Source: a virus (lineage: Duplodnaviria > Caudoviricetes). Taken from it: a DNA stretch of 64,000 nucleotides. Under the pieces are notes generated by a model. The model had not been told where the DNA came from and searched no databases. It worked only from the letters and a program-made list of their open reading frames with translations. Both the position numbers and the translations under genes were made by a program. Position 1 is the stretch's first letter; every line of letters starts with the position of its first letter. Below, one piece after another: positions 19,640 to 33,540 of the stretch. Where the stretch lies: positions 32,001-96,000 of IMG/VR virus record IMGVR_UViG_3300042997_000909. One strand, written 5' to 3'.

Positions 19640-19790
19640 TTTGTTCTAAATATTGAATAACATACTTGGCGTAAGATGTAAGTACCTCATGCCCTTGAAA
19701 CTCAAAGGATTCTTTTTCATCCTTGACACTCTTCTCATAAAGAGATTTAAACTCTTCAAAGAGTTCATCAGTAAACTCAAACGTACTCAT
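19608..19790 (-). CDS. Hypothetical protein
   Basis: 60 aa ORF (FEFQGHEVLTSYAKY). Confidence 0.6.
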   Translation of the reverse strand: MSTFEFTDELFEEFKSLYEKSVKDEKESFEFQGHEVLTSYAKYVIQYLEQNDTGRTSSKS

Positions 19791-19791
19791 C

Positions 19792-20253
19792 TTATTGAAG
19801 CTGTACAGTTACTGAAATAATAGTTCCCTCTTCATCATAATGAGCATACACAGGATACATTCCATCTCCAAATGCAGTACTAAATGCTAAACCAGCACCC
19901 GTGTGACCCATTTTGAATCTTAGTTCACCATGTCCTTCTTCTGACAAAGTTGCTTGTGCACATGCATTGTAGCTAAATCCACTTTTTGATTTAGGTCTAT
20001 CTGTCACTTCCCAGTCATGCTCTGATATTAGAACATTCATGGTTTTACCATATTCTGGTAACACCTCTTCATAGTTTGCAAAATCCTTTCCATAAGTTAA
20101 GGTTCTACCAGTGTGTTTGTTTTTGTAGACTCTAATGTCTTCAAAATCTTCATTTTCCCATTGAGAATCAATGTAGCATGGATCACAGATCATTAACTGA
20201 CCTGAATCCACAGCAACATGTCCTATGAGAACTTCTGTTACAGTTTCTGCCAT
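19792..20253 (-). CDS. DUF4241-like protein
   Basis: GHVAVDSGQLMICDPCY and STAFGDGMYPVY motifs. Confidence 0.65.
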   Translation of the reverse strand: MAETVTEVLIGHVAVDSGQLMICDPCYIDSQWENEDFEDIRVYKNKHTGRTLTYGKDFANYEEVLPEYGKTMNVLISEHDWEVTDRPKSKSGFSYNACAQATLSEEGHGELRFKMGHTGAGLAFSTAFGDGMYPVYAHYDEEGTIISVTVQLQ

Positions 20254-20279
20254 AGCATTTGTTTTTAGTTAATAAAAAA

Positions 20280-20635
20280 GTTAGTGTCTAGTCTTTCCCA
20301 GTGTCAACAGATCTATTCCCTGCAGGCAACCTGTAGCACGGTTTTTAGTTACTCATCGTTTTAGCACCCTCAGATGTAGGGTCAAGCTGAGAACTCATTC
20401 GCATTGTGTTTGGTCTAAATGACCACCAGCTTTCTCAAGGCTGCAATACGTCCAGCATTACTGCTGATATTTTGTTTATACTCCTCAATGTTTTGGAGTC
20501 CAATCTGTTCTTGGTAGTCAACAGATATGCTTTTAACCACTTGATTGCTTGTACTTCATGTCACATAGTTCTATACAAGTATAAAAGATGTGACCTGATT
20601 GACGTGAATACTCTGGTTTGGCGTCTGATTATCTT
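20280..20635 (-). ncRNA. Putative ~360 nt structured non-coding RNA
   Basis: No credible ORF; at least eight hairpins, including CAGCA-GUAA-UGCUG and a UGAGA T-loop on the minus strand. Confidence 0.6.
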
Positions 20636-21043
20636 TAATTAGTTAAATCCTTTTCCACAATGCATCATAGCATTGATCTTCTCTCTTTCTAGCCAAGCTA
20701 GATATCTAAATAGTCTCTTCATTTTCCAAAAGTTTTTTAATGGCTTGATTTGCTAAGTACTTGCTACATTTAAACTTCCACACAAGATACTGTTGAATTA
20801 TCTTTTTTGGCATAACCATGTACTCATTGTTGTTAGCTTTAACATCATCAACCATTGCGTTAATTTTAATACTCATATTATTCTGATTTAGTTGATGACT
20901 TTTTACCTGCTGGTTTAGATTTCTCTAAACATTGATTGCAAATCCATACACCAATTTCTTGCATTTCAGATTTGATTTTGTCTAAATGACAAGAGTAACA
21001 TGTCTTTTTTACTTCATTCATCTTAAGAATTTTTGGTATTAGA

Positions 21044-21289
21044 TTACATGCCTGATTTATCTATCAGAACATAAGGAGGAATAATGGTTACTTTAGATCC
21101 ATCACTATTAAAGTAATATATGGTATCACCATTAAAATTAATTGTGTCTGTAAGCCATATAGCATCATGCATTGGATGCAATCCTGATGTTGGTATATAG
21201 ACTTTACCATGTATCTCATACCTGTATTCTTTTGTAATACAAGAAGATATGATAATTATTGTCAAAAGTGCTATTAATACTTGTTTCAT
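21044..21289 (-). CDS. Putative small lipoprotein
   Basis: MKQVLIALLTIIIISS-C signal peptide and lipobox. Confidence 0.55.
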   Translation of the reverse strand: MKQVLIALLTIIIISSCITKEYRYEIHGKVYIPTSGLHPMHDAIWLTDTINFNGDTIYYFNSDGSKVTIIPPYVLIDKSGM

Positions 21290-21440
21290 TGTTCTCAGTT
21301 TTTGTTCTTCCACTCTTTCCAAGTGTCAAAGTCTTGTAACTTTTCTAACATCCATTTAGCACCTGCAATCCAATTGTCTGTCTTGTCTACATTTGGGTCA
21401 GCTAAATTAGCAGCAGCTTCTTTGATTTCTTCTTCCATAA

Positions 21441-32419: not shown

Positions 32420-33540
32420 CAAAAAACTAATGATATGTTCAATGCCATACTACTATACTTCATATGGCATTAGGAAATCACTCCTATAGGGTTCGCACGA
32501 CTGGCGTATACCCTACAAACTTCATGCAGTGCACCTGTATTACTACAACGCTTTGAGCCTAAGCAACTATTTATACTCGCTCAAACGAGTTTGAAAGGCT
32601 GAGTGTTGACCTTTCATATCGTGATTCTGACAACTTTCGTCATCTTACACACACTTGCGGTTAAGCAAGTACACGACATACTCAACAGAATAGGTTTCTG
32701 TCTGACCACTACGTACTGGCTCATAGGTTCCTTTTCCTACCAACTTCCCTGCAAAGGATTTACAAGATGCCTCCTGTTAGTTAGATAGTAATCATTTCCC
32801 TTGTCATCTGTCTTGCGAACGTCAAACATCTGCATATTACAGCAGAATAAGAGTATTATCACCAATACGTGCTTGGACACTTTTGCTTTTCTCTTTAAGT
32901 TATAAAGTTTTAAGCGGTCCAGGAATTGTGAAAGAAGTGGCCCAAGCGCACAGCATCATGCTACCTTTTGAGTAGTTTAGATACGACTTCTTTCTGTTTT
33001 CACCTGCCAAGGATACTCACTGTTCATTGTAATTGCCCACGGTATTTCTACCAACAGACTACAAAAAACTAACAAACGCTTCAGAGTTGGCGACTCCTAC
33101 TACAATTTGCTTACTACACTCTTCTATTGAGATTTCTCTCTCAAACTCCTGCCTGTCAGAAGTTCTGTAATACTGTGCATCAACCGTTAGGCCACAAGCA
33201 CACCATACTACAGGGAATATAGTACCTTTCAGAAGACAGAGATTACTCTCTGCGCAATGTGCTACCAACACATCACTTTATACCATCACTGGTTTATCCT
33301 ATGGTCACGAAGGCTGACCTGTTGTTTCAGTAACTCCACAAGGGAGCTTAACGCATACGCCATGAGTATTTCAACTCTGAGGGCAACAACAATGTATACT
33401 TATGGTCAGGTTCTCACCCTGACCGTATCCCCCATTCTGCTATGTTTCAAGACAGACCCAGGGATTCTCACTTGTCTGTTATGGTGAGCCAACGCCAGCA
33501 ACTTACTGGATAGACGCCTGGTTAAAGGAAAGACGCCAAT
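32420..33540 (-). ncRNA. Putative giant (~1.1 kb) structured non-coding RNA, GOLLD/ROOL-like class
   Basis: ORF-poor; multiple GNRA and T-loop hairpins that read correctly only on the minus strand; long-range complementarities. Confidence 0.7.

Follow-up and report, generated by a model that had tools for sequence, protein, structure and literature searches.

A modular structured RNA from phages: a pseudoknotted core framed by three related hairpins

A conserved, ORF-free segment on the minus strand of a phage genome almost certainly encodes a real structured RNA whose family is not represented in Rfam 15. The RNA is modular: a 145-nt core is combined with three related flanking hairpins and an optional 5' module. 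It occupies positions 20288-20640 of the window, by which we mean the whole 64,000-nt stretch analyzed; it spans bases 32001-96000 of a phage record that is complete at 123,450 bp and carries direct terminal repeats. The locus lies within a 452-nt gap (20254-20705) amid a run of small minus-strand ORFs, and this gap is flanked by a 56-aa ORF upstream and by a 153-aa protein with a DUF4241 assignment (Pfam E 3.4e-10) downstream. An earlier note, made from the letters of the window, had described the region as lacking a sense ORF and as ending about 30 nt before the DUF4241-like gene. Both observations hold: the gap contains no credible sense ORF, and the RNA ends 34 nt before the start codon, from which it is separated by an A/U-rich spacer without a Shine-Dalgarno sequence. 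Nor did we find a small protein gene among 12 relatives: no reading frame is kept across them, their longest stop-free runs over the RNA span 12-68 aa in frames that shift from one relative to another, and their length changes fall at hairpin tips.

Relatives were collected in two ways. With the DUF4241 protein as a lead, we obtained 24 related phage loci, in several of which the non-coding sequence ahead of the gene shares 71-88% identity with the window. Scanning for invariant blocks as patterns returned 20 IMG/VR and 14 metagenome loci, yielding 21 distinct core sequences. Two alignments were used to evaluate the fold, A3 with 12 full-length sequences and A4 with 18 core sequences, and pairs were counted on a hand-corrected structure that includes the pseudoknot. 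RNAalifold predicts 52 pairs, 20 of them with compensatory changes. In A3, 98.3% of the cells pair, against 25-45% when partners are slid, and changes on both sides are seen in 20 pairs, against 1-4 with slid partners; none of 500 shuffles reaches the observed value. In A4, 99.2% of the cells are paired and both-side changes occur in 16 pairs, against 0-5 in the slid controls. Covarying homologs of the proposed RNA thus exist in both alignments, and in both of them stems vary and loops and junctions stay fixed.

Two further properties bear on the nature of the element: G-U pairs are tolerated on the minus (RNA) strand only, and insertions of about 30 to more than 100 nt fall at the tips of P5b and P6. 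The stability of the minimum-free-energy fold of the gap is unremarkable (z = -1.38), so that the case for structure must rest on comparison. An unexceptional energy is what one might expect of a DNA-level element, such as an origin or a set of protein sites, or of a decaying sequence with chance hairpins, but we find either explanation barely conceivable: it is contradicted by the compensatory changes in 16-20 pairs, by the strand-specific tolerance of G-U, by the failure of slid and shuffled controls and by loop insertions placed exactly at hairpin tips.

Table 1. Features of the RNA and its upstream flank (window positions).
Feature	Position	Strand	Evidence or variation
Weak promoter-like site, tentative: TAGAAA, 16 nt, TG-n-TATGAT (extended -10)	20664..20691	-	Consensus scan; site count not above shuffles
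Optional 5' module, with a long irregular hairpin at 20560-20594	20527..20640	-	Conserved in closer relatives only
H1, hairpin copy 1: UUGAC-UA-CCAA-GAACAGA-UUGG	20500..20521	-	Stem covaries: CCAA/UUGG, GCAA/UUGC, CUUA/UAAG
Conserved core (model R1): H2, H3, P5/P5a/P5b three-way junction, pseudoknot, P6	20359..20502	-	Covariation in A4
H2: CUCC-AAAACAUUGA-GGAG, 10-nt loop	20481..20498	-	Outer pair C-G in 13, U-A in 4
H3: 6-bp hairpin, GNRA tetraloop GUAA	20452..20467	-	Both-side changes in 4/6 pairs
P5 with enclosed P5a and P5b	20400..20450	-	Three-way junction
P5: CGUAUUG/CAAUGCG	20444-20450 with 20400-20406	-	Both-side changes in 4/7 pairs; 100% of cells pair
P5a	20427-20443	-	Both-side changes in 3/4 pairs
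P5b	20412-20424	-	Length and sequence variable in relatives
Pseudoknot: UGAGAA (20432-20437, P5a loop) with UUCUCA (20388-20393)	20388..20437	-	6 pairs, 100% paired, n=18
P6: GC-UUG-ACCCU-loop-AGGGU-GC, then conserved UAAAA	20364..20387	-	Covariation and loop insertions
P7 mini-hairpin: CC-GUGCUACA-GG	20330..20341	-	Inner pair C-G in 9, U-A in 3; weak, 2 pairs
P8, hairpin copy 2: UUGCC-UG-CAGG-GAAUAGA-UCUG	20308..20329	-	Stem covaries
P9, hairpin copy 3: UUGACA-CUGG-GAAAGA-CUAG	20288..20307	-	Invariant within the family

Several individual elements of the core (Table 1) had been picked out in the earlier note, and comparison bears most of them out. The CAGCA-GUAA-UGCUG hairpin, now H3, is real, with compensatory changes in relatives and a loop that reads GUAA, GCAA or, in L201, GAAA. 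The CAGC-CUUGAGAAA-GCUG hairpin, which corresponds to P5a, and the ACCCU/AGGGU stem of P6 are likewise kept by compensatory changes; P6 takes the form ACCUU/AAGGU in L201. The UGGUC/GACCA stem of P5b forms in the window, within a stretch that is variable in length and sequence among relatives. P5 itself has distant versions, CAUGCAG/CUGCGUG in L351 and UGUGUUAU/AUAACACA in L201. The pseudoknot that had been proposed between UGAGAA and UUCUCA can form in every one of the 18 sequences, and its fifth pair covaries, being A-U in 14 sequences and C-G in 4, with never a single-sided change; the C-G state spans two sub-lineages that differ in P5. The loop of H2 is unchanged in 17 of the 18 sequences of A4, and P6 tolerates loop insertions of about 30, 85 and more than 100 nt in L088, L095 and L135, respectively. 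The combination of a GNRA tetraloop and a covarying pseudoknot is typical of compact tertiary folds.

Around this core stand three hairpins of common design, one on the 5' side (H1) and two on the 3' side (P8 and P9). In each, one or two bases separate a UGAC-like flank from a 4-bp stem, which is capped by a GAA(N)AGR loop; the middle base of this loop is U, C, G or absent. P9 forms the 3' border of the RNA; here the earlier note had recorded a 3' CUGGGAAAGACUAG element (20288-20301), which proves to be the hairpin CUGG-GAAAGA-CUAG. Copies with a GAC flank in the phage's own genome are limited to H1 and P9 of the RNA, the flank of P8 being GCC. Variation in P8 is informative: pair 329-341 is U-A in 5 sequences, A-U in 4 and C-G in 3, pair 330-340 is A-U in 8 and G-C in 4, and one relative carries the hexaloop GAAAGG. 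The mini-hairpin P7 contains a GUGCUA that is repeated from the 3' side of P6.

Two earlier proposals for the same part of the RNA did not survive comparison. The CUACAGG/CCUGCAG hairpin (20320-20336) cannot be formed by relatives, and the covarying CAGG-GAAUAGA-UCUG (20308-20322) is found there instead. Two copies of AUCUGUUGAC had been thought to compete for the same AACAGAU partner; the second copy is peculiar to the phage itself and one relative, so that this competition finds no comparative support, and the alternative-pairing part of the earlier interpretation is likewise unsupported. RNAalifold also proposes a long-range helix, P1 (GUUGACU with AGUAAC), which rests on little variation and is tentative. 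Its single variable G-U pair displays one-sided changes only (G-C in 3, A-U in 1); moreover, UGAC is a general hairpin flank even where it has no partner, and the 3' strand is missing in a locus that is split by a gene (see below).

Upstream of H1, the optional 5' module contains the blocks AAAGAUAAUCAG, AGUAUUCAACG and GCAAGYAAUCA, conserved in about 8 of 12 loci (alignment A2). By eye, its stem differs in several relatives yet remains self-complementary (GUCACA/UGUGAC, AUUACAC/GUGUAAU, GUAUC/GAUAC). The module is absent or different in L057, L059, L081 and L095, and it may include the transcript start or lie just downstream of it.

The core is known from only about 20-25 phage loci. We built from A4 a covariance model of the core, R1, with 153 positions. 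Among about 200 loci fetched for other reasons, R1 matches solely family members, in about 20 loci and at 56-181 bits, and on the phage's own genome it gives a single match, consistent with one copy. Most long contigs with the core measure about 120 kb, similar to the phage's own genome; the family is therefore rare and for the most part restricted to a single group of phages, mainly from fresh water. Whole collections were scanned by exact patterns, and more distant members have therefore probably been missed. A BLAST comparison of the RNA region with 50,697 cultured phage records returned no match except for an 18-mer region within P9, found in the cultured phages Rheinheimera Barba, Vibrio pVco-5 and MS02, and Shewanella 3/49. 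No description of the RNA or of the hairpin was found in the literature, whether we searched with sequence words or by topic.

Distant members reveal how the RNA is assembled. L351, L201 and L135, which score 56-87 bits with an HMM or covariance model, retain H2, H3, P5/P5a, the pseudoknot strand and P6 and show new compensatory changes in them; they are devoid of H1, P8 and P9. In one contig (L245:1910-2191 and L070:1-777), a 1.1-kb opposite-strand metallophosphoesterase-like gene is lodged between P6 and P8-P9. From the three hairpin-less cores and this gene-split contig we conclude that core and hairpins are separable modules. The same metallophosphoesterase-like gene is found divergent just upstream of the RNA in six other loci, and it is absent from the neighborhood of the window; its placement suggests rearrangement at the borders of the RNA.

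The ORF that follows the RNA differs by locus and may encode DUF4241, a glucosaminidase/endolysin-like protein or unrelated small proteins. Only about 10 nt separate the end of the L135 core from a phage tmRNA gene (L135:6336-6671(-), tag GKSNLTVGFSSYRTARVAMAA), after which come three tRNAs (tRNA-Arg, tRNA-Ser and tRNA-Leu). We observed no conserved partner gene, and the neighbors shared between loci are small unknown proteins. This context bears directly on the possibility that the core is a riboswitch, that is, a metabolite or ion aptamer gating the downstream gene, which we consider extremely improbable. Its size and complexity are comparable with those of large aptamers, its junctions are invariant and it stands directly upstream of an ORF; however, the downstream gene families are unrelated, one member precedes a tmRNA, no riboswitch family matches and there is no conserved expression platform, the alignment containing neither a conserved terminator nor a conserved start-codon-masking alternative fold. 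A group I intron was also rejected: the downstream genes vary, each with a start codon of its own 15-45 nt beyond P9, six loci have a divergent upstream gene, and RF00028 does not match.

Known RNA families offer no identity for the locus. The earlier note had seen no hallmarks of tmRNA or RNase P, and indeed cmscan against Rfam 15 places nothing on the RNA, whether tmRNA, RNase P, ribozyme or riboswitch classes, 6S, GOLLD, ROOL, HEARO, raiA, or group I/II introns. When the search was extended to E up to 10 over positions 19700-21300, only chance-level matches were obtained (at most 23 bits, to snoRNA/miRNA models), none of them on the RNA. ARAGORN detects no tRNA or tmRNA in the window. At gathering threshold, the sole Rfam match in the 64-kb window is a Pistol ribozyme (32529-32590, minus strand, 56.5 bits for a gathering score of 34.5), inside a 1.1-kb ORF-poor segment.

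Could the core itself be a new self-processing ribozyme, which cleaves or joins the transcript at a border of the core? Among orphan structured RNAs of such size, most are not known to be ribozymes, and we regard this reading as quite improbable. It would be in keeping with the compact pseudoknotted fold, the invariant junction nucleotides, the placement of the RNA at unit borders and the presence of the Pistol ribozyme in the same genome, and phages do use ribozymes beside tRNAs, as a report on theta (HDV-like) ribozymes indicates (PMC10879173). Against it, no ribozyme family matches even at E up to 10, and nothing marks a cleavage site.

We also considered mimicry of 23S rRNA (helices 73-76). 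Five shared words of at least 8 nt cluster at positions 2056-2108 of the E. coli 23S rRNA (P ~0.003 against shuffles), and the invariant blocks GGAAAGAC, UUGACACUG, AGCUUGAC and AACAUUGAG of the RNA are also present in this segment. These blocks are not kept in the 23S rRNA of the Bacteroidota Chryseobacterium or Maribacter, and the resemblance is therefore best seen as a coincidence of UUGA-rich sequence; invariance of the hairpin across phages of many phyla likewise led us to reject mimicry.

The hairpin at the 3' border has a much wider distribution than the core. The 18-mer GACACUGGGAAAGACUAG of P9 has exact copies in 84 IMG/VR contigs of very different content. A wider scan, in which the two middle stem pairs were left free, retrieved 125 distinct contexts. 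All nine pairing-compatible stem combinations are represented (67, 17, 10, 9, 9, 7, 3, 2 and 1 contexts), and not one context falls in the seven incompatible combinations. As only compatible combinations occur, with G-U allowed, the element is an RNA hairpin on this strand. P9 belongs to this class by its UGAC flank, covarying stem and GAAAGA loop and, like other copies, lies at a unit border, here just before the start of the DUF4241 gene. The hairpin is almost always found outside long ORFs. In tRNA arrays (including L030, L045, L064 and L072) it precedes tRNA 5' ends by 3-6 nt. Elsewhere it precedes start codons by 8-60 nt, those of SNF2-type helicase and capsid genes among them, or follows T4-type TATAAATA late promoters at a distance of about 60 nt, and it is also present in unannotated gaps of Rheinheimera, Vibrio and Shewanella phages. 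Rfam has no family overlapping the hairpin in 51 other loci. The hairpin and a closely similar spacer are found together in a Flavobacteriaceae contig, a hint that our phage may have a Bacteroidota host. Within the window, a three-mismatch look-alike of the 18-mer, GACACUUGGAAAGAGUGG, is present at 21310-21327 (minus strand) inside a small ORF and is probably due to chance (two matches in 2 of 100 shuffles).

Outside phages, a genome-wide scan of bacteria produced 62 hairpin matches, about the number expected by chance according to our estimate, and many of these are in coding sequence. The real non-coding matches are in Patescibacteria rRNA spacers and in apparent Bacteroidota prophages. In Patescibacteria (L289:215-254, L291:168-207 and L316:4922-4962(-)), the hairpin, frequently present twice in tandem, separates the 16S rRNA from the spacer tRNA; it follows the 16S 3' end by about 100 nt in L289 and L316, the L291 locus being without a 16S end. 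In two different picorna-like RNA viruses (L036:1028-1045 and L031:8096-8113(-)), the 5' UTR also has an exact copy of the 18-mer at its 3' end, 20 and 51 nt before the ORF start. The 1612-aa polyprotein of L036 contains RNA helicase, 3C protease and RdRP_1 domains, and the ORF of L031 measures 1649 aa.

Several phage contexts of the hairpin have a recurrent organization of their own. About 20 contigs (L026, L032-L034, L038, L044, L054, L060, L068, L075, L080 and others) share a conserved, structured-looking leader of about 150 nt with the 18-mer at its end; next come a long hairpin and an ORF of 515-532 aa, a SNF2-family helicase where scanned (L032 and L034). We propose this SNF2-associated leader as a candidate separate RNA family. 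A second group (L114, L117, L124, L126:4759-4960, L150, L159, L164, L165, L168 and L176) has an TATAAATA box, the T4-type late-promoter consensus, with the hairpin about 60 nt further on, then a variable hairpin and a conserved UUACAAGYGAUUGAC; in L126 the resulting leader is about 190 nt long and precedes a small ORF that has a strong Shine-Dalgarno sequence. In a third group, formed by tRNA arrays (L047, L050, L061, L077, L079, L141, L178 and L179), the hairpin is preceded by tRNA-like 3' ends (...GCAUUGG) and followed by a recurrent unit GAUGUGGG-hairpin-CCCACAUUUUAUAAUCAU. An abiF RNA motif (RF03085) was identified at L029:1421-1457 and L128:1078-1114(-), inside hairpin-bearing phage arrays of tRNAs or RNA modules.

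Signals of transcription around the RNA are sparse. No intrinsic terminator is present on the sense strand, and Bacteroidota-type TAnnTTTG promoter boxes are not conserved upstream. Two UUGAC boxes were considered as sigma-70 promoters and discarded: no -10 box is found at the right spacing, and the bases that follow them lie in covarying stems. The consensus scan retained the weak site of Table 1. Since the upstream gene is divergent in six relatives, their promoter must lie within about 190 nt of the core, and this is all the space left in these loci for a promoter, the 5' module and H1. The genes upstream of the RNA in the window share its orientation and are closely packed.

The earlier note had suggested either a stand-alone ncRNA or a cis-regulatory leader. 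With covarying homologs and no Rfam family, these remain the two leading readings, and the variety of downstream genes, together with the distant member that abuts a tmRNA gene, leans toward a unit independent of the gene that follows. We favor, at about an even chance and on the strength of sequence comparison, a stand-alone, stable ncRNA whose invariant loops would bind a partner and whose flanking hairpins would mark its ends. That 98-99% of pair cells hold, with 16-20 compensatory pairs as opposed to at most 5 when partners are slid, speaks for an RNA of this type, as do its single copy per genome and the lack of an intrinsic terminator on the sense strand. Hairpins of the P9 type, furthermore, adjoin tRNA 5' ends and follow the 16S rRNA in Patescibacteria, where RNAs are cut apart. 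Such an RNA would be made early, either from its own weak promoter or within the transcript of the small-gene cluster. To judge from their position alone, the flanking hairpins might mark and protect the ends where this transcript is cut, as they seemingly do in phage tRNA arrays. In the core, the invariant loops and junctions may constitute the working surface, which most likely would hold a host or phage protein or another RNA, rather than sense a metabolite or control the next gene.

Other facts fit the stand-alone ncRNA less well and could equally suit a leader: in full-length members P9 always lies 15-45 nt before a same-strand start codon, the RNA heads the transcription unit in six loci, and no partner protein gene is found among the neighbors shared between loci. 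We may thus also envisage, as a possible though somewhat unlikely alternative, a gene-independent cis-acting leader, in which the RNA would act on the transcript that carries it, by rendering the polymerase resistant to terminators, by shielding the 5' end from decay or by handing over ribosomes in a host without Shine-Dalgarno pairing. The RNA is always on the same strand as the next ORF, an extended -10 promoter-like site is seen just upstream in the window, and no Shine-Dalgarno sequence precedes the DUF4241 start, the spacer being A/U-rich; P9-type hairpins are also found 8-60 nt before start codons of other phages and 20-51 nt before the two picorna-like polyprotein starts. However, one member precedes a tmRNA gene and not an mRNA, the hairpin is also found against tRNAs and within rRNA spacers, settings in which translation plays no part, neither a terminator nor an alternative fold that would sequester the start codon is conserved, and the close packing of co-oriented genes upstream makes a transcript start in the window less than obvious.

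A bolder proposal combines both parts of the RNA: the core would represent a new functional RNA class, acting as a ribozyme or binding a conserved host machine with high affinity, and the GAA(N)AGR hairpins would serve as a universal 'punctuation mark' in RNA, recognized by a factor or fold that bacteria and eukaryotes share. We hold this to be doubtful. If true, the punctuation mark would account for the occurrence of an identical 18-mer in DNA phages of many phyla, Patescibacteria rRNA spacers and picorna-like 5' UTRs.

Many folded RNAs of phages lack known roles, and the present one offers a clean, covariation-backed small new family with a defined secondary structure, in which one core is framed by three copies of a hairpin common to hundreds of unrelated phages, some bacteria and RNA viruses. 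The reader of this hairpin, once found, could explain how phages cut, protect or express arrays of ncRNAs, and the core could point to a novel mode of action of early phage RNAs on their hosts. Relative to the cosmopolitan UGAC-stem-GAAAGA hairpin, P9 is an exact copy, and in the variants H1 and P8 the loop is longer by one base (GAAYAGR). Here three copies bracket a rare and separate 145-nt core, which also exists without the hairpin.

Phage antitermination signals provide a first comparison. The boxB element of lambda nut sites has a short stem and a purine-rich, GNRA-like loop of five bases, next to boxA. The flanking hairpins similarly have a short stem and a purine-rich GAA-type loop, possibly GNRA-like with extruded bases, and boxB is, like them, a sense-strand, RNA-level signal of early phage transcripts. 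A lambda nut site was nevertheless rejected, for the flank is UGAC(A) and not boxA and the loop has six or seven bases instead of five; unlike boxB, moreover, the hairpin is present in RNA viruses and rRNA spacers. The fact that phages with hosts in many phyla carry it unchanged points to a partner from the host, or one of RNA alone, and away from a phage-specific N protein. The put RNA of HK022, about 70 nt with two stem-loops, makes the polymerase resistant to terminators. Along with other processive antitermination RNAs, it resembles our RNA as a folded element of an early phage transcript that would act whatever the downstream genes; the likeness is one of general description.

Large ornate RNAs such as GOLLD, ROOL, raiA and HEARO are, like this RNA, ORF-free, supported by covariation and often close to phage tRNA or RNA genes. 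Unlike them, it has another architecture and matches none of their covariance models, and it is much smaller than GOLLD or ROOL. Theta (HDV-like) ribozymes (PMC10879173) adopt a double pseudoknot fold with the cleavage site against a tRNA, and are, like the hairpin, small RNA elements at the borders of phage tRNAs. The hairpin differs from them in measuring 14 nt plus flank, in lying 5' of tRNAs and in having no HDV-like match. What is new here, beyond the hairpin itself, is the specific RNA core within its frame.
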